Origin: a virus
Taxonomy: Duplodnaviria > Caudoviricetes
IMG/VR virus record: IMGVR_UViG_3300028172_000069
Reading direction: 5' to 3' (one strand)
DNA: 64,000 nucleotides
The notes below the pieces were generated by a model. That model was given only the letters and a program-made list of their open reading frames with translations. It had not been told where the DNA came from and searched no databases. How positions within the stretch are numbered: the stretch's first letter is position 1; every line of letters begins with the position of its first letter. The translations under genes and the position numbers were made by a program. Below, one piece after another: positions 1 through 60,110 of this stretch.

Positions 1-1641
1 GAATTTGGGCATCACCTTCGCTGCGGTGACAGCCAATTCCTTGAAGCCCTTGACGCGCTGAATCTCCTCGATCATGCGCTTCTCACTCCAGTCCGCATAG
101 ACGATACCTGGGAGGGCTTTGAACAGATCACTCAGGCGAGACTCACCGAACTTATCACCGAAGAGCACACTGCCTGCGCCGAGCTTGGCGAGTGTTGCAT
201 TCTTGGCAAGACTGTTACGGATGTTGCGCTCCAGCGTCACGGCTTTGGAGTGACCGAAACGAGGAATCTCCTCGAAGTCGGCTGCCGTGGCGTTGATGAT
301 CTTCTTGATCGTGGTGAAGCCATTGTCGATCAGAATGTCGATGGTGCCACGCTTCAATCCATCCACTTCAAGGGCCGTGAAGAAGTTGAGCAGCGACTTG
401 GCTTTACGGTCGTCACCGCCTTCAACAGCGTAATAATGCACACCATCAGACTCGAACGCGACACTTGGCTGTGCAGGCTTCTTGGCGGCCTTGACAACTT
501 CCACGATGTACGGAATCACGTCACCAGAGCGCACGCAACGAATGATTGCACCCTTGTTGATCGGGCGTGGCTCGTATGGAATCTTGGAGTCTTTGAGTTT
601 CGACGTGTAGCCGTGCTCGATGTAGAACCCGTTGTGCCCAGTGAAGTGCTCGACCATGACTCCGCCAATGCGAGTTGGCTTGATCAGGATGCGTGGTGCC
701 AAGCGACCATAGCGCGACTCGTTGAACTCGACGTCCAGCACAGGTACTTCCACAGCAGCTTCCAGATCGTTGATCTTGAAGGCGAAGGAATGTGTTGGAT
801 ACTTACCGACAACGGTGTACGAGCGGTCTTGTGCAACCACGATGCCGTCGATTGCACGCTTGGCGCGAGTGCGACGGATGTTCAGGAGATTCGTGAGGAT
901 GGTCTCGTTGAGTTTCGGGTAGACCTTGTGTGGTACTACGTCGAAGCCCAGAGCTTTGAGGTATGCGAACTGCTTGGAGGGTGCAACGCGAGCATTTGGA
1001 CCAGCCATGATTTCGTGCGCAATGCACTTGACCTTGGTGATCGCAGTCGTCGGTTGGTTACGGTTGAGCAGGCCACCAGCGCCGTTACGCGGGTTGTCGT
1101 ACTCGCCACCGTTCTCCTTGTTGAAATGTCGATTGAAGGTCTGCTCACTCATGGTGAACTCGACACGCACAATCAGGTCTTTCGGCTTGACGCGATGCGG
1201 CACTTTCAACGCCGGGATTACTCCAGACGAATCAGTGCCGATCTTACCGTCACCGCGCTGTACTGCCTTCACCAGCACATGGTTTTCATACACCAACTGC
1301 AGGCTGATGCCGTCTTCCTTGTCGCTGACAACGAATGGGCCTTTTTCCAAGAACGCCAAAAGCCCGGACGAGCCGGGCTTGAGTTTGCTAAGACTACCCA
1401 TGGCAACGGCCAGCTTAGTGCGGCGCGCTACATGAGTGGATTTGGAGCCGACGCGAGCATACGGCTTCTTGGCGCGTTCGTCGTGAACATCGCGCAGGGT
1501 GTCGTACACTTTGTCGCCTACGCTTGGCTTGTTCTGGTCGTGGTACTCGTAGTCGAACTTTTGGAGGAGCTTACGCAACTCGCCCAGAGTCATACCCTGG
1601 GCTGCTGCTCTTGGATTCCGTTTGATCTGCGCGAGGTTCAT
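1..1641 (-). CDS. ligA: NAD+-dependent DNA ligase (C-terminus runs off the window)
   Basis: Absent from the ORF track; translated by hand from ATG at 1641. Contains YH..P.VGDKVYD (domain Ia), the adenylation motif SDKEDGISLQLVY, the RGDG motif and an HhH-like C-terminal region. Confidence 0.93.
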   Translation of the reverse strand, partial: MNLAQIKRNPRAAAQGMTLGELRKLLQKFDYEYHDQNKPSVGDKVYDTLRDVHDERAKKPYARVGSKSTHVARRTKLAVAMGSLSKLKPGSSGLLAFLEKGPFVVSDKEDGISLQLVYENHVLVKAVQRGDGKIGTDSSGVIPALKVPHRVKPKDLIVRVEFTMSEQTFNRHFNKENGGEYDNPRNGAGGLLNRNQPTTAITKVKCIAHEIMAGPNARVAPSKQFAYLKALGFDVVPHKVYPKLNETILTNLLNIRRTRAKRAIDGIVVAQDRSYTVVGKYPTHSFAFKINDLEAAVEVPVLDVEFNESRYGRLAPRILIKPTRIGGVMVEHFTGHNGFYIEHGYTSKLKDSKIPYEPRPINKGAIIRCVRSGDVIPYIVEVVKAAKKPAQPSVAFESDGVHYYAVEGGDDRKAKSLLNFFTALEVDGLKRGTIDILIDNGFTTIKKIINATAADFEEIPRFGHSKAVTLERNIRNSLAKNATLAKLGAGSVLFGDKFGESRLSDLFKALPGIVYADWSEKRMIEEIQRVKGFKELAVTAAKVMPKF

Positions 1642-1650
1642 GTGGACTCA

Positions 1651-2841
1651 CTAATCGTGAATGGATGCGGTGGTGAACTTCTTGTTCTTTACAGCTCCAT
1701 TGAAGGCTCGTTTGCCTGCCGCCAACTCCGATTTGGTGGCTTCGCCTTTCACCGATACAGATTTGTAGTTCGCCATATCGACGCCGTCTGCGAGGCGCAA
1801 CTTGCGCACATCCTTCTTCGCTACCGAGTACAGCGCAAACTCGGTGTAGCCTTCGTGCTTTGTGGCATCGACTACAACGAACTCGTTGCTCGGGCGCTTG
1901 GCAGACTGCACGATGGCACCAACTTTCAGCACTTGGCTAGGCTGGTGACCCTTCGGCACTTCAGGCTCGTCCAGAGGAATCTCGTGGATGTCCTCATCGT
2001 CCTCGATTTCATCGTCGTCAATGTCGTGATTGCTGACAAGGTCATCGTGGATATCGCGCTTGATGCGACTTGGCGACTTCGGTGAGATAGCTTCACGTGG
2101 AGCAACCGCAGTTTCCTTGGGCTTGCGAATGCGCGTCTGCTTGGGCTGACCAGCTTTCAGATCGGCGAGAATCACCAAACCCTTCTGCTGTTTGCTCGTT
2201 GGCAGAATGCGTGCACCAGATACAAGCTCCATGTAGGTCTCGTGACTGATGTTGACACGCTGCTCGTTCGGCAGGATAACGAACCCGCCACGGGCTTTGG
2301 TCATGTAACGCAGACCGATGATATCGCCTTCTTGGGTCGTGTACTTGCTACGGCCCTGTTTCAGCGACTTGACTTTGGCACCAGCATGGATGACTTTGCG
2401 CCACTGATAGTTGGCACGGTCATACATGGTGTTTTCCCTGATCGTGCCCGTAGGTTTGAACAGGTCGTCAGTCTGCTTGTCGGAGCTGACCTTGTCACTG
2501 ATGGTCACCTTCTTCACGCGCTTCTGCCCATCGAGAAGCTGGTTGTGCTCAGGCGTTTTGCCTTTGTACTTCACCAGCTTCTTGATGATCTTGTTGATCT
2601 GGGCTTCAGGCACGTTACGGAAGAGGACGTGCAGTGCGTGACCCAGGACAACTTGGTAGTTACCTGCGCCTGAGCCACGAGTCGCTTGCTTCATGCCGAC
2701 CAGCTCGCCCGGACGCACCACGAGAGGGTGCTTCTGGTTGAATTCCTTGTCGGCGCCGAGCTTGACTGATCGGTCACCCTCGAAGGTGTACCAAGTCAGC
2801 GTCGCCAGGTCTTTTACCTTAGCTTCGGCTGTCCACTGCAT
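1651..2841 (-). CDS. hypothetical protein with a basic region and an acidic tract
   Basis: 396-aa ORF co-oriented and tightly packed between neighbours; no recognisable motif. Confidence 0.75.
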   Translation of the reverse strand: MQWTAEAKVKDLATLTWYTFEGDRSVKLGADKEFNQKHPLVVRPGELVGMKQATRGSGAGNYQVVLGHALHVLFRNVPEAQINKIIKKLVKYKGKTPEHNQLLDGQKRVKKVTISDKVSSDKQTDDLFKPTGTIRENTMYDRANYQWRKVIHAGAKVKSLKQGRSKYTTQEGDIIGLRYMTKARGGFVILPNEQRVNISHETYMELVSGARILPTSKQQKGLVILADLKAGQPKQTRIRKPKETAVAPREAISPKSPSRIKRDIHDDLVSNHDIDDDEIEDDEDIHEIPLDEPEVPKGHQPSQVLKVGAIVQSAKRPSNEFVVVDATKHEGYTEFALYSVAKKDVRKLRLADGVDMANYKSVSVKGEATKSELAAGKRAFNGAVKNKKFTTASIHD

Positions 2842-2845
2842 TACA

Positions 2846-3778
2846 TTACTCCATCGGAAGTACAGTCATCTGGAGCGCAACTGCGGCGTGTGCTTGGCCC
2901 GCGTTGGTGATCCGGACATACACCTTGTTGTCACCACCGCTGTTTGCCGACCAGAAGCCGTAGCGACGCGAGACAACTTCACCACCATCTTCAAAGGTGG
3001 TGATGCCGTCGTCTTCCAGCTTGAGGTTACTGGAGGTGAAGGTGTACGGGTTGGTGTCGCTGTACGCTGGGCTGCTGTGCAACTCGACAGTAATGTCGGG
3101 CTGATCCACAGAGAGCTTGAGGATCATCAGCGTTGGGCTAGGCACCTGAATGGTGTTTTGCACGCTGGCGCCTTGACCGACGTTCAGGTAGGTAGAGTTG
3201 AGTACGGAGCGCGCACGCTTACCGCCTGCAGCTTCGCCCCACTTGGCATTACCGTCTTCGCCAACAACAAGCGCAGAGCCTTCGTCAACACCTTCGGTAG
3301 ATGGCAAGCCACTGACCTTGGCCCATACAGCAGCGCCTTCGGCATTGCGAACAATCGCATCACCCGTGGTACCGCCAGCTGGTAGGCCGTCGATCCACTC
3401 ACTGCCGTTTTCACCAACAGCGAGCACCTTACCTTTTTCAACGCCTTCCATCTCTGGCACAAGGCGCAGTTCGTCGATGGAGACCTCGAATTCTTCGCTG
3501 ATGGCCAGCGGAGCTTTGAAGTCGAAGCCAACATACTTGCGGGCGTCAAACTTCTTCCAGGCATCAGCACCCGCTAGGGTTGTACCTGGGATTTCGTACA
3601 GGGTGTTGTCCTCGCGAACGTAGACAAGCATACCCTGCTTTCGTGCTGCTGTTTTGATGGCATCGCGCTCGGCTACGGTTGCGACTGAGCGATAGCCACC
3701 CTTCTGATACACGTCTTCGAGAATATACGGGATACCCGCACTCGAAGGGATGAAAAAGCCGGAGGCATAAAGTGGCAT
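2846..3778 (-). CDS. putative tail fibre/baseplate-associated structural protein
   Basis: SD GGAG before ATG 3778. RKQGMLVYV motif and LPAGGTTG/LPSTEG-type fibre segments; lies downstream of the Ig-repeat fibre gene. Confidence 0.55.
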   Translation of the reverse strand: MPLYASGFFIPSSAGIPYILEDVYQKGGYRSVATVAERDAIKTAARKQGMLVYVREDNTLYEIPGTTLAGADAWKKFDARKYVGFDFKAPLAISEEFEVSIDELRLVPEMEGVEKGKVLAVGENGSEWIDGLPAGGTTGDAIVRNAEGAAVWAKVSGLPSTEGVDEGSALVVGEDGNAKWGEAAGGKRARSVLNSTYLNVGQGASVQNTIQVPSPTLMILKLSVDQPDITVELHSSPAYSDTNPYTFTSSNLKLEDDGITTFEDGGEVVSRRYGFWSANSGGDNKVYVRITNAGQAHAAVALQMTVLPME

Positions 3779-3831: not shown

Positions 3832-6800
3832 TCAAGCGTAAGTAACCTTGAAGGTGACCGCACCCAGGCTATCCCAGTCCGTACGGTACACCAGCCACTG
3901 CTGAGGACCGTTGCCATCGTGGCAATCGTAGGTGACTTCGATTGGGTCGTAGTTGTCGCCAACTTCGCCCTCTGGCGTCCACTGAATACCGCCAAAGCCG
4001 CCCGGTACGTTGATCGCTTGATCGGTGAAGGTCGCACGGCCCAGCGACTTCAAGTGCATGAAGTAGCCATACTGTGCATCGCCGATGTTGATGTTGAACG
4101 TCTCGCCCGAAGTACCCAGCGGCAGGACGTTGGTCATCACCTTGTCACCGAAGTCCTGAATGCCAGACCAGCGAGTGTACGGGATGTTGTACGTCTCGTT
4201 CGTGCCAGTCTTGCCGCCAGTGAAGTCAGTGTCGGAGAACATCGCTACGCCGAAGCGTGGACGATTGTTGCCCGAGACAACGGCTGCTTTCACTGTCAGG
4301 TTCGCAGTTGCCTGCTTGCTCACGCCAGCTGCGGTGTAGTTGAAGGTCAGCACAGTCGCAGTATCCGAAGACACGTTGGCCGCGTTGAAATCACCTTTGG
4401 TCGACTGCGAGAACGAACCGGCCGAAGCAACGCTGGTGCTGTATGTGGCAGTGCTGGTCACATCCTGAGTCGTGGAATCAGTGAAGTTCGCAGTTACCAC
4501 ATACTTGCCAGTGGCGCCCGATGCCAACTGAGTCGGACCCGATACAGTGATCGAAGCCAGCTCAACTGCTTTCTTACCAGTGACCGTCTTATCGGCGGCT
4601 ACGGTGATACCAGCTGCGGTGTAAGTCGCGTGCAGCGGGATTGCAGTGTCAGCACTCAGGTGCTTGACAGCCAGCGTACCATCAGTCGCCAGAGTTGCCA
4701 CAGTGGAGCTGGCAGTTGTCGACCAGGTGGCCAGTACGTCAGAGACGCTGCCGTCAGTCATGGTTACCTTGGCCGAGTAGGTACCGCTGCTATCGCTGTT
4801 CACGGTAGCTGGACCGTTGATAGCGAGCGACGACGGTACTGGTACAACGACGAGCGACACAGACTTCGTGCCGTTGACGGTGCGACCGAACTCGGTATAG
4901 GCGACCTTCACCGTGATGTTGCGGGTAGTGCCACCAGGCTTCTGGTTCGGAGTGAACACGCCAGATGCGTTGATGCTGCCGATTGGATCGCTAGGCGTGG
5001 TGCCTTCAACAGCCCAGGTACCAACTACATCAGCGCTGGTACCGTCAAGGTACGTTACCTTGGCGAGATACTGCGCGCTACCTGCACCGTTCGCAGCGGA
5101 CGAATTCACAGAGTTCGGGCCGGTGATCGCGATGGACGCTGGATAGTTCGTCACGTCATGCACAGCGATGGTCTTCGTCGCGGTAACCGTCACGCCGTCC
5201 AGCGTATACTTGCCAGTCAGGATGGTGTTGATGTTGGTACCCGACTTGTTCTCTTTGGCAGTGAACAGGCCGTTCGCGTCTATGGTACCAGCAGTGCTGG
5301 TGTTGCTCGACAGCCACTCGGTAGCTGGCATCACGACAGTGGTCTGGTCTTCGAAGGTGACGCGCAGTTCGTACTGCTCGGTCTTCAAGGAGTCCACCAC
5401 GGCACCACCGGTGATGCTTGCGCTCACTGGATAAACGGTCTTGTCGCGGACAGTCACGTTCTTCTCAGCGCTCACGGTGATACCAGACGCGGTGTACGAC
5501 GCGCTTACCTTGGTGCTATCATCAGCCTTCAGGTTTGCGTTGGTCGCCAGTGCACCAGTCGTTGGGTTGATGACACCAACAGAGGTCTTCGAGGAAGCCC
5601 AGTCGATTACACCTACCAGCGAGCTGGTACCGTCGGTGAACGTCACGCGCAGCACGTAGTTGCCAGTGTCACCTTCGTCGAGGAAGTCAGGACCTTCTAC
5701 GACAGCCGAAACTGGGTAGTTGGTCGAGTCAGTCACGGTAACGTCCAGCTCGGCACCTACAGTCTTGCCAGCCGCCGTATACGACGCAGTGATCTTGGTC
5801 ACCTTGTTGCCAGTGGTGTCCAGACCGTTCAGCACACCAGTGTTGGCACCGATGGTCGCAGTCGAGATAACCGACGACTTCCAGTTGGTGACTGGCACGA
5901 TGGCCTTGGTCGCATCGGTGAAGGTCACTTCCAGCTGATACGTCTGGCTGGTGTTCTCAGGCAGAGAGTTCGGACCCAGGATACGCGCACTGCTTGGGTA
6001 AACAGTGGTGTCCATGATGGTGATAGTCTTCGCCGAAGCGGTGACAGTCTTGCCATCGAGGGTGTACGACGCGGTCAGCGACGCTGGGGTGTTGACGTCC
6101 ACGTTTGCAGGCGCAGTTACGCGACCCGAAGTGTTGACGCTGGCACCGTTGCCGCCAGTGATCGCCCAGTTACCCGAACGGTTCGAAGTGGTACCATCAG
6201 CAAAGGTAACTGCCAGAGTGTAGTCAGCAGTCGAGCCTTCGTTGATAGTCGCCTGGCCGTTGATGACGGCGCTCACCGGGTAGTTGGTGATATCGCGGAC
6301 GGTAAGCAGCATGTCCGCAGTCACGGTGCGGCCGTACTTGCTCCACGACGCGGCCACAGTAGTGGTACCGTTCGCTTGCAGGTTGACAGCAGCAGTCACC
6401 AGGCCGTTTGCAGCACCGATCGTTGCAGCACCGCTGTTGGTCGAGGTCCAGTTGGTCACTGGCTCGTTCACCTTGGTGCCATCGAGGTAAGTAACCTCGA
6501 ACGTCAGGGTCTGCGTGGTGTTCTCGTTCATCTGGGCGTTGCCCACGACGCGAGCGCTCACCGGGTAGTTGGTGATATCCTTGATCGTGACTTCCAGCTC
6601 GGCGGTTACAGTCTGGCCGAAGGCGGAGTACGATGCAGAGACCTTACCCTTGGTGTCTTGCTGCACGTCGGTAGCTGCGACCAGCTGACCGGTGTTCTTG
6701 TTGATCGTACCCATCGCAGGGTTGGACAGAGCCCAGTTGCTGACGGTGACAACGTTGGTGGTGCCGTTGCTGAACGAAACACGGAACTGGTACTGCGTCA

Positions 6801-52070: not shown

Positions 52071-52508
52071 TCATGCGGCGATGCTAAACACTGGTACTTC
52101 GGTTGGCGAGGCAGTGTAGGCTTTGCGCCCGCCGATGCGCACACCAGCGTAGAACATCCAAGCACGCCAGCGAGCTACGCCTTCTGCCCGCAACGCACGG
52201 TACAGGACTTGGTCACACTCCTTACGGTTCGGGTAGTAGATCGACCCGTCCGCTTGGCGAATGCCGTAGCCTGAGTACAACCAGTCGTGAATCGTGGCGG
52301 CCTTGTCACCGTAGTTGGCGAGCAGGGCGTAGAACACGAACAGCCAGATGTTGTGCAGCACGTCAATCGAGGCGTAGTTGGTCTGGAAGCCTTTATCTAC
52401 CTCGATCTTGCCGAACACAGAGTCCTGATAGGTGAACACGGCGAGCATCTGATACAGCCGCCGTTGGAGCTCGCGTGTGTCAAAGTGGGAGAATACGCCT
52501 GATGCCAT
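52071..52508 (-). CDS. DUF1353-like protein
   Basis: GFQTNYAS...AATIHDWLY...CDQVL...AGVRIGG pattern. Confidence 0.75.
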   Translation of the reverse strand: MASGVFSHFDTRELQRRLYQMLAVFTYQDSVFGKIEVDKGFQTNYASIDVLHNIWLFVFYALLANYGDKAATIHDWLYSGYGIRQADGSIYYPNRKECDQVLYRALRAEGVARWRAWMFYAGVRIGGRKAYTASPTEVPVFSIAA

Positions 52509-52536
52509 GATATACCTTCGGTAGCGTGTGGAAATG

Positions 52537-52560
52537 AAAAAGGCGACCCGAAGGCCGCCT
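52537..52560 (-). terminator. intrinsic terminator ending the RNA island
   Basis: AGGCGGCC-TTCG-GGTCGCCT-TTTT. Confidence 0.8.
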
Positions 52561-52561
52561 T

Positions 52562-52885
52562 AGTGTCCACTGTTTCCCGCACACCAGCACTGTCGCCCGA
52601 ACAACACTGCGGTCTGCGGAGAGGCTGTAGACGTGCCTACTCAACGGGCCCTTCCCCCGTACGCAACAACTGCCGAGCCGGAAAACCCTGGGCAGTTATC
52701 GGTAGTCTCCGCTTTCGCGGGCTCATGCTGGAGCTAGGCTCCGAATGGGTGCAGGCTCTTACCCTGCTTGGTGTAGAGGCTCGGCGGCGCGGCGCTTGGG
52801 GAGGGCTGGCTTCAAGGAGCATGGCAGCTGGATGAGTGTCTACCAATGGTGCCTTACGGCTACACGCATTACCTCTCACGAGGAG
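52562..52885 (-). ncRNA. candidate ~320-nt structured RNA rich in GNRA tetraloops
   Basis: No credible ORF; hairpins CCUC-GUGA-GAGG, GCC-GUAA-GGC, CCGC-GAAA-GCGG; helices AACUGCC/GGCAGUU and GUGUAG/CUACAC; bounded by a tRNA and a terminator. Confidence 0.6.
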
Positions 52886-52891
52886 AACAGT

Positions 52892-52965
52892 TGGGACGTC
52901 TGGGACTTGAACCCAGGACCACGCCGATTAACATTCCGGTGCTCTACCGACTGAGCTAACGTCCC
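52892..52965 (-). tRNA. atypical tRNA: GTT (Asn) anticodon on a Lys-like body, bulged anticodon stem, no encoded CCA
   Basis: GGGACGT/ACGTCCC acceptor, GCTC/GAGC D-arm, loop ATGTTAA, CTGGG-TTCAAGT-CCCAG T-arm, A73. Confidence 0.7.
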
Positions 52966-52966
52966 A

Positions 52967-53275
52967 TTAGTCTTTGAGTGCAACTCCGACACTCACTGCC
53001 AGACAGAACTTGCCATCGGGATTCGTGAAGAACGATCCGCCATAGGTGTAAGCCTGTCTGGTTTTGTTCTTGATCTTGCGCAAGTGATTCTTCATCAACT
53101 TGCGGATCGAGGAAAGAAGCAAGCGACGGTCGCTGGTGTCGTTGACCGCCAGCACTTCGTTGACCGTGACATACTTGTCGCCGAGCTTCGGAACTTGACC
53201 CTGGTCCAAATGGACAATGTCCAATGAGCACGAGGTAAACAGCAGTTTGATTTCTTCCGCAGTCATCTGACTCAT
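52967..53275 (-). CDS. hypothetical protein inside the tRNA cluster
   Basis: 102-aa ORF ending next to the 5' end of a tRNA. Confidence 0.6.
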   Translation of the reverse strand: MSQMTAEEIKLLFTSCSLDIVHLDQGQVPKLGDKYVTVNEVLAVNDTSDRRLLLSSIRKLMKNHLRKIKNKTRQAYTYGGSFFTNPDGKFCLAVSVGVALKD

Positions 53276-53382
53276 GGATCAGTTTCCAAAGCAGCGTGTA
53301 GGCAGGGCCAGTAACCGGTAATACCGTCACTGCTCTGATGTACTAGCGAATAGCGTTCTATCAGAACTCTGGCCCACAAAAA

Positions 53383-53458
53383 TGGTAGGACGTCCGAGAC
53401 TCGAACTCGGGACCCTCGGATTAAAAGTCCGGTGCTCTACCAACTGAGCTAACGTCCT
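53383..53458 (-). tRNA. tRNA-Lys(TTT)
   Basis: 76-nt cloverleaf, loop CTTTTAA, CCA encoded; C27-A43 mismatch. Confidence 0.95.
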
Positions 53459-53640
53459 AGAAAACAATCCCGCTTGCACAGACGAGTGGGCTTCTGTACT
53501 TGTGAACAGAGTCAGGGCGGGTACCTGTGGTCATTGCCAATACAGCGCCGTCCACGAGTTTCAGGCCGCATCAACAATCTAACTCTGGTTCGCTACCTCG
53601 GGCACGGCCAGCTTTGCAGCGCCCACTGAGGTTTTGAATA

Positions 53641-53716
53641 TGGCTCCCGCTCCTGGACTCGAACCAGGGACGCCACGGTTAACAGCCGTGTGCTCTACCG
53701 ACTGAGCTAAGCGGGA
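53641..53716 (-). tRNA. tRNA-Asn(GTT)
   Basis: 76-nt cloverleaf, CACGG-CTGTTAA-CCGTG, G73, CCA encoded. Confidence 0.96.
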
Positions 53717-53890
53717 AGGGTAAAGTGTGCGGTTTCGTGCGCATCGCCAAGGATAAACGTGCAAATCGTATCTTGGCTAACAGGCACAGCTCGTTCAAAT
53801 TGCGAAGCAGCCTCCGCGTACGGTCAGCGCTCTTTTACGTTTCCCAGTAATCCACCACAAGCTTGCTGGGTGTGCTCGCTTTGCAACGAA

Positions 53891-54106
53891 TCAGGCATTG
53901 CCGGTATACGCGACAAACACCTGCATGTTTTCTTTCACCTCGACAGGACTGCCTCGAGGTGTGAGGACACCACCGCCGTGACCTTTAACTGACCAGGTCA
54001 CTGTGTACACCACGCTCGGGTCTCGACCGTCGAGTTTGACGGCTTCTTCGTAGCTGATGGTGCGGCAGACAAACTCATGCGGCTTTGCATTCACAAAAAT
54101 TTGCAT
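53891..54106 (-). CDS. stand-alone ubiquitin-like (multi-ubiquitin-type beta-grasp) protein
   Basis: IFVNAK...ISYEEAVKL...YTVTW...GVLTP.GSPVEVKENM.V.V..T matches the bacterial multi-ubiquitin domain pattern as I recall it. Confidence 0.6.
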   Translation of the reverse strand: MQIFVNAKPHEFVCRTISYEEAVKLDGRDPSVVYTVTWSVKGHGGGVLTPRGSPVEVKENMQVFVAYTGNA

Positions 54107-54123
54107 GGCGGTGCTCTCGGATG

Positions 54124-54200
54124 TGGCGACTCCAACGGGACTCGAACCCGTGACCTCTGGCGTGACAGGCCAGCATTCTAACCGACTGAACTATGGAGCC
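54124..54200 (-). tRNA. tRNA-Asp(GTC)
   Basis: 77-nt cloverleaf, loop CTGTCAC, CCA encoded. Confidence 0.96.
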
Positions 54201-54205
54201 GAAAG

Positions 54206-54282
54206 TGGCGACCCGGACGGGACTCGAACCCGTGACCTCTGGCGTGACAGGCCAGCATTCTAACCGACTGAACTACCGGGTC
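54206..54282 (-). tRNA. tRNA-Asp(GTC), tandem copy
   Basis: Identical to 54124..54200 except in the acceptor stem; CCA encoded. Confidence 0.96.
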
Positions 54283-54488
54283 TATGATCGTAGCTTGCTC
54301 AACAAATTAGCTATCTGCAATTTCGCGCTCGGCAGCATAAGGGCAATGCTGAGCCCGATAGGTGCGACGTGTGCGTACTTCACAAGTGTGTTGGTGAAAT
54401 ACAACGCAACACCGACTAGCACGTAGGCAGTCCAAACACACGCATCGTACCGCGTTTCGCAGAATGGCTTGAAGATTCGCTTGAGCAT
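54282..54488 (-). CDS. small membrane protein
   Basis: Two hydrophobic segments; TCTGTAAA motif upstream at 54523-54530; start uncertain (54500 or 54488). Confidence 0.5.
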   Translation of the reverse strand: MLKRIFKPFCETRYDACVWTAYVLVGVALYFTNTLVKYAHVAPIGLSIALMLPSAKLQIANLLSKLRS

Positions 54489-54534
54489 GTGTATTACCAA
54501 AAGCAGAATTGTGTGGCTCTGCTTTACAGAATTG

Positions 54535-55323
54535 GTGCCAGCAGGTAAACTTACCGCACGTACTCGTTGCTGGGGCGGGCAACGTGGACCAGTGTGCGTA
54601 CCAAGCAGCGTGGCATTACCTTATCGAACAGCTTGGGTGCCGTATTCCCAAACGCTCTATCTGACGTGCTGCATTTCATCGGCTCCGCGTAGGTACCAGA
54701 CGAATGATTAGGTGCCTCAGACTCGTTACCGCGTCAGAACCAGAAGGAGATTAGAGTTCACCATGTGCCAGGAGTTGAAATTGGGTAGCCCGGTCATTCG
54801 ACCGTAGCATCTGTTCTCTATCCTGCGCGCAGCGGGCGATCCTGTAACGTCTCTTAAATTCTCAGTAAGAAGTCGAGCCTGAGGCGAAAAATGAAACCCA
54901 CCTAGAAGATGGAAGGCTTATGCTAATGTCGCGGCGGAATTCCTGCTGTCACTACCCAAAGCTGAAGGGCTTGATCTGGCTGGCTCGAAGCTGCGTTGTG
55001 TTGGCTTTCTTTCCTTTACACTTCTAGGTGGGAGTGGTTGCGACTTCCGAAGAAGCCGAGCGAGCAACTGATTCCTGGGTTAGAGGCCCAACACCGCATC
55101 CAGTAATACAGAAGGCAACCGTGCGCTTGATAGGCGATCACTCTAGTCCCTTGTACGTTGCGCAGAGACAAACGCAACGGCACGCCAACGCAAGACTCAC
55201 GCGGCCTATGCTCCGCAATTCATCCATTAACCACAGCAGGAAATTCCGTGGTGACGGTCCGGGAAATCGCCCCTTTGACCGCTGAACTCAGCCGCACAGC
55301 TTATCAGGCCGTTGGCTGTCGCA
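54535..55323 (-). ncRNA. candidate giant (~790 nt) ornate non-coding RNA
   Basis: No minus-strand ORF of 60 aa or more; several long-range helices of 7-15 bp, a C(UUCG)G hairpin and many local stems. The 3' boundary is approximate. Confidence 0.7.
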
Positions 55324-55385
55324 GACTCCGTAGAGTTTCGTGGGCCTTTCACCCATACACGGACTTGAACCGTTCATCAGTGCGA
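55319..55385 (-). ncRNA. type I hammerhead ribozyme with an extra hairpin in the core
   Basis: UCGCA-CUGAUGA-[ACGG UUCAAGU CCGU]-G UA UGGG..CCCA C-GAAAC UC UACG GA GUC-UGCGA; predicted cut between 55324 and 55323. Confidence 0.8.
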
Positions 55386-55399
55386 GTAATGAATTAGCA

Positions 55400-55645
55400 T
55401 TTCGAGATTGGCCTGCACCGTACATCTGGCTTCGTGCAAGCCTCTCCTCGATTCAGCAACCGCAGCCAATGGCGGCGCCTTTGTGGTTTGTGCGGGATGG
55501 GATCGCTGGCCGGATCAGGTACCCATCCCTATCTACATCGCGCAGCCTGACTTCCGGCAGGCGATGGTTCTGTTTGTGGTTGCAGCGCTTCACCCGATTC
55601 CGGCGGGTGTTGCACTGTCTGGAGCCTGACGCTGCACAGGCTCAA
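55400..55645 (-). ncRNA. candidate ~245-nt multi-hairpin RNA
   Basis: Perfect stems GAGCCUG/CAGGCUC, CACCCG/CGGGUG, GCCUG/CAGGC and GGGAUGGG/CCCAUCCC; no credible ORF. Confidence 0.6.
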
Positions 55646-55669
55646 AATGAAGATCAGCAAGGTGTGTCC

Positions 55670-56170
55670 TTACGCAGGTTGTTCGACGTGCTCGGTGAGA
55701 CGGCCGAATGCCAGTTTGTGAACAGCAAACAGTTCGGTACCGTCTGCACCGTTGAAGGCGCGCTTGACGCTGGCGTGCACCACGTTTGCCAGTTTGAGAT
55801 ACTTGACAGTTTCACCATCAGCTCCAAACTGACGCAGGATGATCGCGTCAAGCTTGGTGGTCTTGAAGGCTTCGATACCGTCGAGCACTTCCTGTTCGGC
55901 TGGAACGAAGTCGCTGAACGCAAACTCCGCAGCTTGCATCATTGCACCCGCAGCAGGATCAGACGCAAAGACGAAATCTTGTTCGGTGATCTTCACAGTT
56001 CTCAGGTTCAGCTGGAGTGCCTGAATGGCATTCACCAGAACTGGCGCCACTTCCTGAGAACAGTCGATCCGCCACAGGTCAAAGTTGTCGTTCAATGCGA
56101 TCTGTTTGATCGCGGTAACGTCATCCAAACTAACCTTGCCTGCAACGGTAAGCTGTACTGAATCCGACAT
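55670..56170 (-). CDS. hypothetical protein
   Basis: SD GGAG; GCTAATTC motif about 25 nt upstream. Confidence 0.75.
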   Translation of the reverse strand: MSDSVQLTVAGKVSLDDVTAIKQIALNDNFDLWRIDCSQEVAPVLVNAIQALQLNLRTVKITEQDFVFASDPAAGAMMQAAEFAFSDFVPAEQEVLDGIEAFKTTKLDAIILRQFGADGETVKYLKLANVVHASVKRAFNGADGTELFAVHKLAFGRLTEHVEQPA

Positions 56171-56209
56171 AGCAATCTCCGTGCTTGTCAATGAATTAGC
56201 AATCGCGGT

Positions 56210-56875
56210 TTACACTTCCGCCTTGCGTGGAAGGATGATCCAGTCGTTGGCGGTCACGTCCGACTGACTGGCAACCCAGGCAACGCAGTCACCCTGCGCC
56301 GTGTACATATCAATGTGGTCACGGTAGCTGATGACCTTGCCCTCTGGGAAGATGCTCGCCAACGGCGCGCGGTTGACCGTGAAGGTCGACGCAGGCACGT
56401 AGTAGATGAACATATTCTTGCCGTTCCAGTTCTGGCGGCAGGCACGATAGCCAGCCTTGATCGCTTCGACAGCAGTGCCGAAAGACTGCGGCGCTTGGCT
56501 TTCAACCAGGGAATCGAAATCCTGAACTTCTGGGAAGCACGGGTGGTGATCGTCGGCGCGACGGGCGAATGCGACCTTGAGCGTGATCGTGGTCTGCGGC
56601 ACTGGCGGAACTTTGGTGAGCAACACCTGCGATACGTGACCTTCGAGGAAGTACACGGCAGTCGCATCACCCTTGAGTTCGCGCAGCTTGAGCTCCAGAC
56701 GTGGAATCACCTCACGCACATCGTCAGTATCGACGGTGGCGGATACGTCGGTGTAGTCAACGACGCGGGTGTTACCTGCGACGTCCATGTAGGTACCGTG
56801 ATCGAGGCCGCGGATCACATGCAGACCCAGCGGCTTCAGGATGTTGAGCAACAAATCTTGTTCGAGCGGAATCAT
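56210..56875 (-). CDS. DUF2829/Tad2-like domain protein with N-terminal extension
   Basis: SFGTAVEAIKAGYRACRQNWNGKNMFIY...WVASQSDVTANDW matches the DUF2829 pattern F..A...K.G....R.GWNG..M...W..SQ.D.LA.DW. Confidence 0.75.
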   Translation of the reverse strand: MIPLEQDLLLNILKPLGLHVIRGLDHGTYMDVAGNTRVVDYTDVSATVDTDDVREVIPRLELKLRELKGDATAVYFLEGHVSQVLLTKVPPVPQTTITLKVAFARRADDHHPCFPEVQDFDSLVESQAPQSFGTAVEAIKAGYRACRQNWNGKNMFIYYVPASTFTVNRAPLASIFPEGKVISYRDHIDMYTAQGDCVAWVASQSDVTANDWIILPRKAEV

Positions 56876-56882
56876 GTTTGCC

Positions 56883-57536
56883 TCACAGTAGGTTGTCGAG
56901 TTCGTCACAGATGAAACGATCGCGGTGGAGCTCCATCGGGAAAGAGTCACGCACACACTTGAGTGCATACATTATCTTTTCCATGGTAGGTTCGGTAAGC
57001 AACTGAACCAGCATGACACGTGGCGCGAGCAGCGTCAGGTAGCTGCGCTTCCACGGCATTCTGCGCGCCATCACAACATCGCGGACGAGTTGTAGGTAGG
57101 AACCCCACTGCACCAGATCGTCATACAGTGCGCCAACGTTCAGAGCCTTCAACGTGCTCTGGTAGAGCTGGTAGCCACGATAGATGCGCCGCGCATTAGG
57201 ATCGAGTCGATTCATCCGCAGGAACATCAGCGCCTCGGATGAATGCTCAGGCCTGAACAGCATGAAGTGGCGGGCGTTGCAGACGTGCATGAACTGCCGG
57301 CGCTCAAAGAAGTCGCGGGTGTAGTCATGCGCCTCGATGAACAGGACTTCCGCGCTCGGGTCAACCCACGGGCTCAAGGCGTTTTCGAGATATGCCTCAG
57401 CGTTCCGACCTGCATCAGGCGGAGCACACGACACCGTCGCAGTTGATCGCAGGTAGTTGCCAAACTCCAGAGCGTTGAGTCCAACAACCATGAGCGGGCG
57501 ATTGAGTTCTTCGACTCTGGCCAGTTGGAAGTTCAT
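56883..57536 (-). CDS. hypothetical protein
   Basis: SD GGAGG before ATG 57536. Confidence 0.65.
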   Translation of the reverse strand: MNFQLARVEELNRPLMVVGLNALEFGNYLRSTATVSCAPPDAGRNAEAYLENALSPWVDPSAEVLFIEAHDYTRDFFERRQFMHVCNARHFMLFRPEHSSEALMFLRMNRLDPNARRIYRGYQLYQSTLKALNVGALYDDLVQWGSYLQLVRDVVMARRMPWKRSYLTLLAPRVMLVQLLTEPTMEKIMYALKCVRDSFPMELHRDRFICDELDNLL

Positions 57537-58679: not shown

Positions 58680-60110
58680 TCGAGTTATCCAGCTTTGTCG
58701 CATAGCGACGAGTTCTGATTTGTGCGAACTTTTCAGCCGCACGCCTTTTCGACCGCGGGCGAATAGCTTCCTTGTTACCTCACCCTAGCGAGTAGGCTCC
58801 TGAAAGCCGAAGGCTAAAGAAAAGACCACGACCTCCGAGCGAAGCGAGAGGTCAAAGAAATCCCACCGACAGCTACCAGCTACCAGTTCTCTCAACCAAT
58901 AGCTCTGGAACCTACGTTCCGACCTAAGCACTGAACAACTTTCAGAGGCGACCTGTTCACAAGGTGAATTCAGGAAGCAGACTTTGGCCTTTCGATTAAC
59001 GCCGGAGCGTTACGTTAAAGCACTGGAGGCAGTGCCCTAACGTAAATCCCCGTTGGTGTGCGGTGCTCGAAAGAGCTGGTGTCTTTCGGTACACGCTTCC
59101 CTCACTTCGTTCGGTCTGTGCCTTCGGCACATGGACTTTTCTTTCTCTATCGCTTCGCTTCGCTCCGCTGGTCCGTGCCTGAGTGTCACCCTGATGCGTC
59201 TTGGAAGACTTCCTGGGTAGGCGACGAATTACAGAGAAGCGCATTCTGAAAAGGCACCGTGTGTGCCGAAGGTGGAGAATGGAATGGTCAGATGAGGACG
59301 AACGGACGTGAGTGCGAAGATGCGAAGTAACTTCGTGAGTGTTGACAGTTCCTAAAACCAGCAAACTGAGGGGTCAGTGGTCATTTTTTGGACAATTTGG
59401 TTAAAAAATAACCGTCCGCTCTGGAAGCAGCGTGTGGACTGACTTCCAGCGTGGTCGAAGGCAAACAAAAACATGGTGAGAAACGACAGGTCCTCGTAGT
59501 CCTAGCGCAGCTACGCATACGCCTAGGAGGGTCACTTTGGAGCTTCAATGTTTTTCGTCCAAACAACTGCACTTTTACAACTGCAATCAGTAGTGCAGCC
59601 GCTTGGGTCGATTTGCTGTTTGGTCCATTCCTCGGCACCGCGGTTGCTCGGGGCGTGCACCAAATGCGAAAAGTTGGGTACTGCTGTAATCAGTAGTTTT
59701 GCTGTAATCAGTAGTGCAAACCGACGACTTTGCACGAGGCACTCATTTCCTGACGCTGGCGGTATGTCTGGCCTAGGCCTAGCGCGATTTCTCACTTTCC
59801 GAGGGGTCAAAAACGCTGTACAAAAATTGATCAAATCGCGAATTATATTTTCAAACGGGCGTTTGAACAGCCCTTCATACACACCAAAGCGAGGTCACTT
59901 TGCCAAGAAACGAACCTACACGCTAACCGCGGTCCTCTGTGGCATGGTACAGCGCGATTCCTCAGGACCGCACTTTTGAGGACGATCCTGAGAAACGCAC
60001 GAAAGGTCGCGTGGAACTAGCGTATCCTGACGAAACAAGCACCGACGGGATTTTTCGATTTTAGCTGCAATCAGTCGTGCAAATGCAGGTCCCGTGCGGC
60101 CAAAGCAGGT
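58680..60110. other. long non-coding region with mini-hairpins and iterated 17-mers; candidate replication origin
   Basis: No credible CDS; GCGAAGC/GCCGAAGGC hairpins in both orientations, AT-rich patches, four CTGYAATCAGTMGT repeats. Confidence 0.5.
59581..60081 (+). repeat. four copies of CTG(C/T)AATCAGT(A/C)GT(GCA)
   Basis: Copies at 59581, 59684, 59702 and 60065. Confidence 0.85.

Follow-up and report, generated by a model that had tools for sequence, protein, structure and literature searches.

Gene organization of the locus

The window analyzed here is the whole 64,000-nucleotide (nt) stretch of DNA in record IMGVR_UViG_3300028172_000069 of IMG/VR, from a virus of the Caudoviricetes (Duplodnaviria). 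On its minus strand, positions 55323-54500 form a conserved, highly structured RNA region of about 825 nt, preceded by a variant hammerhead ribozyme and followed by tRNA genes. We consider it probable that this stretch is the gene for a folded non-coding RNA of about 0.8 kilobases (kb) in PaBG-like (Baikalvirus-related) jumbo phages, with its 5' end cut by the hammerhead. The neighboring proteins and a near-identical IMG/VR contig mark the source as a large phage. Among named phages, the closest relative of this soil phage is Pseudomonas phage PaBG (KF147891, genus Baikalvirus, 258 kb), as indicated by protein synteny at 30-88% identity and one exact protein match. All genes around the RNA lie on the minus strand, and the locus is bounded by the stop of a gene for a protein of 173 amino acids (aa) at 55670 and by two tRNA-Asp genes (54282-54124). 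The features between and at these borders are as follows, with relatives named by locus handles (L057 and so on) and open reading frame abbreviated as ORF.

55399-55669, minus strand: structured leader between the 173-aa gene stop and the hammerhead, with hairpins such as 55609-55592, 55529-55493 and 55443-55409
55324-55385, minus strand: type I hammerhead of an unusual variant, directly upstream of the RNA
55040-55323, minus strand: domain I; the first five bases from U55323 are the 3' strand of hammerhead stem I
54897-55032, minus strand: domain II, closed by helix B (55032-55024 with 54905-54897; 12 base pairs (bp) in the window), its interior varying between lineages
54886-54896, minus strand: U-rich linker UUUCAUUUUUC after helix B, flagged as terminator-like
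54714-54885, minus strand: domain III, enclosed by F, a newly identified long-range helix of 12 bp (54885-54874 with 54725-54714)
54545-54713, minus strand: domain IV, more diverged, 88-93% identical to L057, from a five-lineage alignment and RNAalifold
54499-54525, minus strand: terminal hairpin AAAGCAGA...UCUGCUUU, then UGG, preceding the small ORF
54282-54488, minus strand: gene for a small 68-aa protein containing a hydrophobic stretch (probable membrane protein), from the ORF list, outside the RNA
54124-54282, minus strand: two tRNA-Asp(GUC) genes (ARAGORN and Rfam), the first of a five-gene cluster

Conservation and distribution of the RNA

Homologues of the RNA were found in eight lineages, five of the window type and three of the PaBG type. 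Besides the window and PaBG, the lineages sampled were L057/L058, L060, L065/L066, L067 (cut off), L068, L070/L071 and L072. These further assemblies were reached through homologues of the 173-aa upstream protein in large protein collections, and PaBG and a third phage, G003, through the hammerhead word; near-identical contigs (98%) held too few changes for a test of structure. The five window-type lineages could be aligned over 630-800 nt. In the RNA, L057/L058 are 91-93% identical to the window, and L070, L072 and L068 show 64-72% identity to it over 500-700 nt after the hammerhead. The PaBG-type lineages (PaBG, L060, L065) have the 5' part and one 3' domain (domain III) in common with the window; their RNA is shorter, about 450 nt, with the PaBG copy predicted at about 121,637-122,090 of KF147891, and the first 180 nt or so after the cleavage site are shared (nhmmer E 8e-9). 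L060 is PaBG-like, at 83% to PaBG.

Comparison of the window with L057 showed that the RNA is the best-conserved part of the locus. Identity is 95-99% over 55376-54977 and 87-94% over the rest of the RNA down to 54479, and it is 58-90% in the flanking genes, 59% in the last 100 nt of the 173-aa gene, 59% in the amino acids of that protein and 73% in the small ORF. The leader upstream of the hammerhead is 82-91% identical to L057, against 59-74% for the gene just upstream, and its hairpins carry compensatory changes (55605/55595, C-G to U-A; 55522/55501, G-C to A-U) as well as a change from U.G to C-G at 55439 in L057.

When 17 related jumbo-phage records were searched with the domain III model, the near-twin of the window and PaBG were the sole carriers of the RNA. 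Neither tRNAs nor a hammerhead lie at 18 further jumbo-phage loci reached through a DUF1353 gene, and the domain III model finds nothing in those whole records. Viral contigs scanned with two hammerhead words gave only the window's group, PaBG and G003. When metagenome and genome contigs were scanned with an 18-mer of the second hairpin of the hammerhead, all 21 hits were chance matches in coding DNA. A blastn comparison of the region with 50,697 phage records, a set from which those near the window are excluded, gave no match. The RNA is an accessory element travelling with this tRNA cluster. G003 was considered as a further carrier and rejected: it has the same odd hammerhead, yet the roughly 260 nt after it are non-homologous. 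In the PaBG record nothing is annotated at the RNA region, and the PaBG genome paper mentions neither a ribozyme nor a non-coding RNA.

Absence of a conserved reading frame

The longest stop-free stretches on both strands of the RNA region span 65-109 codons and lie in differing frames between lineages, and the five-lineage alignment holds no reading frame common to the lineages. Substitutions in the RNA have no 3-base periodicity (58/50/59, 84/72/76 and 74/74/79 at the three positions), unlike those in both flanking genes: the 173-aa gene changed 73 times at the third codon position and 43 and 44 times at the other two, and the small ORF, with 9/6/21 substitutions by codon position, is strongly 3-periodic. 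Among 13-17 insertions and deletions (indels) in the RNA, 9-14 break the frame. Several ORFs of 41-91 codons do overlap the region on both strands, as would be expected if it encoded one or more small proteins overlooked by gene callers. The lack of a common frame, the flat substitution pattern and the mostly frame-breaking indels all speak against such proteins, and in a tblastx comparison with PaBG the hammerhead bases are the sole match within the region, which leaves this explanation next to no likelihood. The region is non-coding and strongly constrained.

A variant hammerhead ribozyme at the 5' end

The putative hammerhead directly upstream of the RNA consists of the following parts, all on the minus strand.

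55385-55381: 5' strand of stem I, UCGCA
55380-55374: CUGAUGA
55373-55359: T-arm-like hairpin
55355-55341: second hairpin
55339-55336: GAAA
55335-55326: stem III with a UACG loop
Ending at 55324: cleavage triplet GUC

The core CUGAUGA...GAAA is identical in 8 lineages, is accompanied by a GUC or GUA triplet, and includes the A15.1-U16.1 pair expected of a hammerhead core. Stem I occurs in five mutually compensating forms (UCGCA/UGCGA, GCGGA/UCCGC, GCGAA/UUCGC, ACGGA/UCCGU and UUGCA/UGCAA), and stem III is kept with varied loops. At the same place, L068, L070 and L072 carry a canonical minimal hammerhead (CUGAUGA-GUGG-loop-CCAC-GAAAC). The variant, found in the window, PaBG, L065, L067 and G003, has the T-arm-like hairpin and the second hairpin (loop UGAAAGG) between the core strands, with both stems covarying; the T-arm stem reads ACGG/CCGU, GUGG/CCAC, CCGG/CCGG or GCGG/CCGC. 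In the window, then, stem II is replaced by two hairpins, and a 10.1-11.1 pair is not evident. With stem I covarying in five forms and a canonical minimal version in three lineages, the upstream element is a real hammerhead, predicted to be self-cleaving. A cut after C55324 would begin the RNA exactly at 55323, where the first-pass annotation, made from the letters of the window before this analysis, had placed its start after an upstream hammerhead.

The first hairpin is also a perfect look-alike of a tRNA T-arm, NNGG-UUCAAGU-CCNN, carried outside the window by the hammerheads at L013 2562-2640, L014 about 5600-5480, L065 5246-5330 and L067 1262-1320. The two loops of the variant could mimic the elbow that the T-loop and D-loop form in tRNA.

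Covariation supports a fold of four domains

RNAalifold, applied to an alignment of eight sequences from five lineages (A4), gave a consensus of 162 pairs, 49 of them with at least one compensatory double change. In the control for this consensus, 96.7% of cells were paired with 51 compensatory pairs; slid partners gave 5-13, and permuted partners 26 on average and never more than 34. The consensus contains many invariant G.U pairs, which assign the RNA to the minus strand. On this evidence the RNA would fold into four domains, namely a 5' domain, two domains that the long-range stems B and F enclose, and a 3' domain with greater variability.

The elements of domain I are listed below (minus strand).

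55312-55308 with 55300-55296: P1, with a conserved loop CUGAUAA; compensatory changes in 5 of 5 pairs
Within domain I: conserved T-loop-like GUUCAG junction
55282-55270 with 55264-55254: P2, 4 compensatory pairs
55252-55246 with 55236-55230: P3, 3 compensatory pairs
55242-55239 (P3 loop) with 55214-55211: pseudoknot PK1, loop to internal loop, just before an invariant CAUAGG
55209-55192 with 55150-55130: long irregular helix, 3 compensatory pairs
55183-55172 with 55163-55153: hairpin, 3 compensatory pairs, followed by an invariant GUACAAGG
55103-55100 with 55078-55075: helix, U-A to G-C in L057
55057-55042: C(UUCG)G hairpin, 3 compensatory pairs

P3 covaries in both clades, as CCACGG/CUGUGG, CCGAGG/CUUCGG, UCGAGG/CUUCGA and UCUCGG/CUGAGA. 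PK1 likewise changes in a compensating manner in the window clade (UUCC/GGAG, CUCC/GGAG, UCCC/GGGA) and in the PaBG clade (GCUUCU/AGAAGC, ACUUCU/AGAAGU). A long-range candidate helix, 55311-55305 with 55208-55202, seemed to show compensation when the window was compared with PaBG, and was rejected; it fails in L060 and competes with the supported P1. Four short segments in this domain (window 55273-55261, 55195-55192 and 55150-55147) covary in parallel across lineages: GGGG, GACA or GGCA pairs locally with UCCC, UGUC or UGCC, and UCUU, UAUU, UACU or UGCU with GGGA, GAUA, GGUA or GGCA. Pairing of the second with the fourth would be just as feasible, and may represent an alternative structure or a switch.

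In domain II, the closing helix B is kept across lineages with 5 compensatory pairs. Inside it lies a local hairpin with an AAUU loop (54952-54942 with 54937-54928), in which the change of 54933 from C to U in L057 repairs an A.C mismatch and the change of 54944 from A to C falls in a bulge. The AAUU of this hairpin (54952-54928) is the only palindromic loop seen, and it is absent from L072 and L068. In the linker after helix B the run of U measures 5 in the window, 7 in L057 and 10 in L058.

Domain III is the only domain recognizable in both clades and holds the longest invariant blocks, CUGAGAAUUUAAGAGA and CCUUCUGGUUCUGACGCGG. Within helix F lie two further helices, 54869-54835 with 54762-54729 and 54828-54815 with 54780-54767. 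Changes on both sides were found in 13 of 23 pairs of this domain, a count reached by 0 of 500 shuffles, and slid controls gave 0-4. A covariance model of the domain (R1, from alignment A5) matched all 8 lineages at 115-172 bits. The long stem of PaBG was also considered as a counterpart of helix B, and this was discarded, as the sequence blocks equate that stem with helix F.

Domain IV contains a covarying hairpin at about 54703-54672, which reads UUCGUC...GAUGAA in the window and CCUG...CAGG, CCUG...CGGG or CCCG...CGGG in relatives; AUGCAG and GAUAGA are among its conserved words. In the terminal hairpin beyond it, the stem is conserved and the loop variable among the window, L001, L002 and L057.

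A DNA-level origin of the conservation would make the stretch a DNA element or the relic of a mobile element travelling with the tRNA cluster and its homing endonucleases, with the longest complementary arms (helices A and B, below) as protein-binding or recombination sites and the similarity left by recent transfer. Some features fit this: the RNA, the tRNA cluster and the 173-aa gene occur only in a subset of related phages, homing-endonuclease-type genes (PDDEXK_5, HNH_3) adjoin the RNA in L065, L068 and L072, and the hammerhead variant also stands in the unrelated context of G003. We regard it as very unlikely all the same, since compensatory changes that preserve pairing and G.U pairs on one strand are the signature of an RNA, and since conservation reaches lineages at 64-72% identity, beyond recent transfer.

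Long-range complementarities proposed for the window

The first-pass annotation had described a multiply pseudoknotted RNA built from five long-range complementarities, A to E. All five, together with the C(UUCG)G hairpin and the palindromic word GGAAUUCC, are present at the positions it gave. Helix A joins 55248-55233 with 54949-54935 (15 bp, one bulged U), helix B joins 55032-55021 with 54908-54897 (12 perfect bp), and C, D and E measure 8, 7 and 7 bp. To judge chance, 200 dinucleotide shuffles of the region were used.

Perfect helices of at least 12 bp (B): 1 observed, 0.02 expected from shuffles
One-bulge helices reaching 15 bp (A): observed, in 0 of 200 shuffles
Helices of at least 8 bp (C): 3 observed, 4.1 expected
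Helices of at least 7 bp (D, E): 19 observed, 15.4 expected

These counts place A and B above chance and C, D and E at the level of chance. In this annotation's model, A, B and C cross one another, and GGAAUUCC in the 3' arm of A mediates pairing between molecules. The lengths of A and B, which no shuffle or nearly none attains, are in its favor, and L070 keeps 10 of the 15 pairs of A. Comparison with the relatives points the other way. The 15 pairs of A in the window fall to 14, 14, 12, 12, 10, 10, 8 and 7 in relatives with no compensation; in L057, where 12 remain, the changes at 55243, 55242 and 54944 all break the helix. P3, by its loop and 3' strand, takes up the 5' arm of A, which includes PK1 as well; both P3 and PK1 covary. 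The 3' arm of A, with GGAAUUCC, belongs to the local AAUU hairpin that L057 repairs at 54933. The 8 pairs of C are largely deleted in relatives, and D and E accumulate mismatches there. The crossing topology of A, B and C was therefore rejected and the model as a whole is highly unlikely, with covariation bearing out only helix B of the five. The one pseudoknot supported by the alignments is PK1, which differs from the crossing that had been proposed. Other parts of the early description held: frame, periodicity and covariation tests agree on a large RNA with extensive conserved structure and no conserved reading frame, and it does lie upstream of tRNA genes in a phage.

Neighboring genes and tRNAs

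Upstream of the RNA lie the 173-aa gene and then a Tad2-like (PF11195) gene. The latter occupies window positions 56210-56968 (minus strand), two genes upstream of the RNA, and in relatives the match is to the anti-Thoeris sponge family of that accession. On the 3' side of the RNA is a cluster of five tRNA genes (Asp twice, Asn, Lys, Asn), and tRNAs follow the RNA in every lineage with enough sequence. What separates the two varies: the RNA directly abuts tRNA-Lys in L070 and L072, whereas an ORF of 60-68 aa lies between them in the window, PaBG, L060 and L065 (in the last three as called genes of 60-62 aa), and a PDDEXK_5 gene in L068.

The tRNA cluster of the window (52890-54282) holds only Asp, Asn and Lys species, and Thr, Ala and Lys/Asp occur in relatives. 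Such tRNAs are species typically cut by anticodon nucleases. The RNA/tRNA locus looks like a counter-defense island, into which homing-endonuclease-type genes (PDDEXK_5, HNH_3) have been inserted in some relatives. In PaBG-type loci the first tRNA after the RNA is 93-94 nt long (L013 3296-3389, the 94-nt tRNA-Ala of PaBG; L060 2071-2164; L065 5997-6089) and has a low tRNA score of 47-49 bits. The ARAGORN assignment is Ala for PaBG and L065 and Arg for L066; for L060 the program gives a 4-base anticodon and no defined amino acid. An insertion of about 20 nt seems to be present in this tRNA, within the anticodon arm or close to it.

In L072, a hairpin resembling an intrinsic terminator (AAAAGCCCGC...GCGGGCUUUU, 4114-4172) ends about 12 nt before the hammerhead, so that the RNA there would be made by read-through, or the hairpin is a part of the leader removed by the ribozyme. 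A second ORF-poor stretch lies about 3.5 kb upstream, at window 58680-59375 (minus strand), L057 about 2056-3379 and L059 1829-3297. It has no called genes in relatives, and its identity between the window and L057 (87-98%, and 97-98% over 59375-59176) is above that of the flanking genes. No Rfam match and no hammerhead core were seen in 58680-59375, and the stretch may be another conserved non-coding RNA.

Proposed processing and role of the RNA

The reading of this stretch as a folded RNA gene stands on the conservation, structure, non-coding nature, hammerhead anatomy and genomic context observed at the locus. For self-cleavage, the ends of the RNA and its role, we infer the following course. 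The RNA would be transcribed on the minus strand together with the neighboring genes. The type I hammerhead would then cut after C55324, leaving a 5'-hydroxyl at U55323 and separating the RNA from the upstream message. The 3' end in the window is probably the hairpin 54525-54499, which would act as a terminator; in the two lineages whose RNA runs into a tRNA, RNase P cleavage would make it. As to its role, we tentatively favor, at somewhat less than an even chance, a trans-acting structural RNA of the GOLLD/ROOL kind, stable and self-contained, that works during infection. Possible targets would be tRNAs or the translation apparatus, or it would have a part in the surrounding counter-defense locus.

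The main rival to this preferred trans-acting role takes the same folded RNA as a long leader acting in cis, or as a processing platform, within the transcript of the small membrane-protein gene and the tRNAs. The hammerhead would merely detach the upstream mRNA, and the domains would govern stability, termination or read-through (at the U tract after B) or tRNA maturation. Cutting of long transcripts into units has been proposed for phage hammerheads (PMC3088659). In every case tRNAs follow the RNA on its own strand, with neither a clear promoter nor a clear terminator in between, and in L070 and L072 it meets tRNA-Lys without a terminator. In PaBG-type loci about 20 nt separate the end of the domain III closing stem from the ribosome-binding site of the 60-aa ORF, and the run of U after helix B resembles an attenuator. 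Nevertheless, 800 nt of covarying structure in four domains far exceeds the needs of known leaders and attenuators. The element downstream also varies (small ORF, homing-endonuclease-type gene or tRNA) next to an unchanged RNA, a pattern that speaks against control of one given gene. A cis-acting leader thus appears unlikely, though it has the most in its favor among the rivals.

Several points weigh against the self-cut, trans-acting RNA. The results obtained here fit a trans-acting RNA and a long cis-acting leader alike. We know of no described hammerhead with hairpins inserted between CUGAUGA and GAAA, and the Rfam models do not score the putative variant of the window; at L068 the Hammerhead_3 model reaches 28.8 bits, below its cut-off of 48.5. 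The homologues amount to about 8 lineages in two clades only, and each helix rests on few independent changes. The single-sequence folding energy of the window's 789 nt is unremarkable (z = -0.42 for the minus strand, +0.32 for the plus strand). The consensus structure and its covariation count come from the same alignment, and for this reason a fold predicted from the window alone was also tested in L070, L072 and L068. Where both sides of a pair had changed there, pairing was kept in 74 of 104 cases, compared with 63 of 167 (38%) in slid controls. Apart from G003, 9 of 10 related jumbo-phage records that are at least 90% complete lack the RNA, which is therefore dispensable for this phage type. 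Finally, the stretch is held by 14 soil runs labelled metatranscriptome, whose contigs cover the whole phage genome at flat depth, like DNA runs, and thus say nothing specific on the expression, ends or cleavage of this RNA.

These belong to a set of twenty small public soil runs under twenty study records (14 RNA, 6 DNA), in which the phage genome occurs in contigs of tens to hundreds of kb at a depth of about 100-3000. Such an occurrence suggests a bloom in one experiment series, or carry-over of DNA into RNA libraries.

A more specific and speculative form of the trans-acting role can be drawn, and we hold it to be unlikely in its full extent. In it the RNA would be a new class of self-processing ornate RNA, with a 5'-hydroxyl made by the hammerhead and a 3' end made by RNase P or a terminator, that would assemble into a higher-order particle like GOLLD and ROOL or dock on tRNA elbows through its T-loop-like elements, serving tRNA-based take-over or counter-defense. 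The suggested service comes from the position of the RNA between the Tad2-like gene and the Asp/Asn/Lys tRNA cluster. If true, it would be one of few large phage RNAs open to genetics, as PaBG grows on P. aeruginosa PAO1. More generally, a family that includes PaBG, a cultured phage with a tractable host, makes direct testing feasible.

Comparison with known RNAs

To our knowledge, large structured RNAs whose jobs are unknown are rare, and Rfam holds only a handful of large ornate families. The RNA described here has the marks of an ornate RNA: it is longer than 500 nt, non-coding, rich in covariation-supported helices and encoded by a phage next to tRNA genes. Scanning with Rfam models (cmscan), over the window at the gathering score and over 52500-56200 at E <= 10, returned only tRNAs and noise, and six homologous loci showed no match to GOLLD or ROOL at E <= 1. 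It does not match the GOLLD (RF01998) or ROOL (RF03087) covariance model. Models of group I and group II introns, RNase P RNA, tmRNA, OLE, HEARO and 6S RNA gave no match either, and ARAGORN was negative for tmRNA. The first-pass annotation had offered a GOLLD/ROOL-like class or a new one; membership in GOLLD or ROOL finds no support at E <= 10, and novelty does, no Rfam family being matched. By covariance-model comparison, then, the RNA is a new family of the GOLLD/ROOL kind, homologous to neither.

GOLLD and ROOL occur in phages and prophages, often beside tRNA islands, are heavily structured, and have been shown to form RNA-only cages (Nature 2025, PMC12286853). Our RNA resembles them in its size class, several hundred to more than 800 nt, and in being phage-encoded and adjacent to tRNAs, with many covarying helices, at least one pseudoknot and no associated protein. 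As in GOLLD, one part is widely common (here domain III) and the rest is clade-specific. It differs in having no sequence or covariance-model similarity to either, and in its carriers, which are Pseudomonas-type jumbo phages of soil and water. A hammerhead would define its 5' end, and PMC12286853 mentions none for GOLLD or ROOL. The RNA thus adds an unrelated family with the genomic habit of GOLLD and ROOL, phage-encoded and next to tRNAs, and its new feature, the predicted ribozyme-defined 5' end, hints that a precise, unphosphorylated end matters.

The ribozyme itself can be set beside the intergenic phage hammerheads of Perreault et al. (2011, PMC3088659). It falls below the threshold of the Rfam models of known hammerheads, and in five lineages it carries T-arm-like and UGAAAGG-loop hairpins instead of a simple stem II. 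It shares with the intergenic phage hammerheads the CUGAUGA/GAAA core, an NUH triplet, a place between phage genes and a three-stem plan, in which stem II has its canonical form in L068, L070 and L072. Those ribozymes flank protein genes; the one described here stands at the head of a large non-coding RNA.

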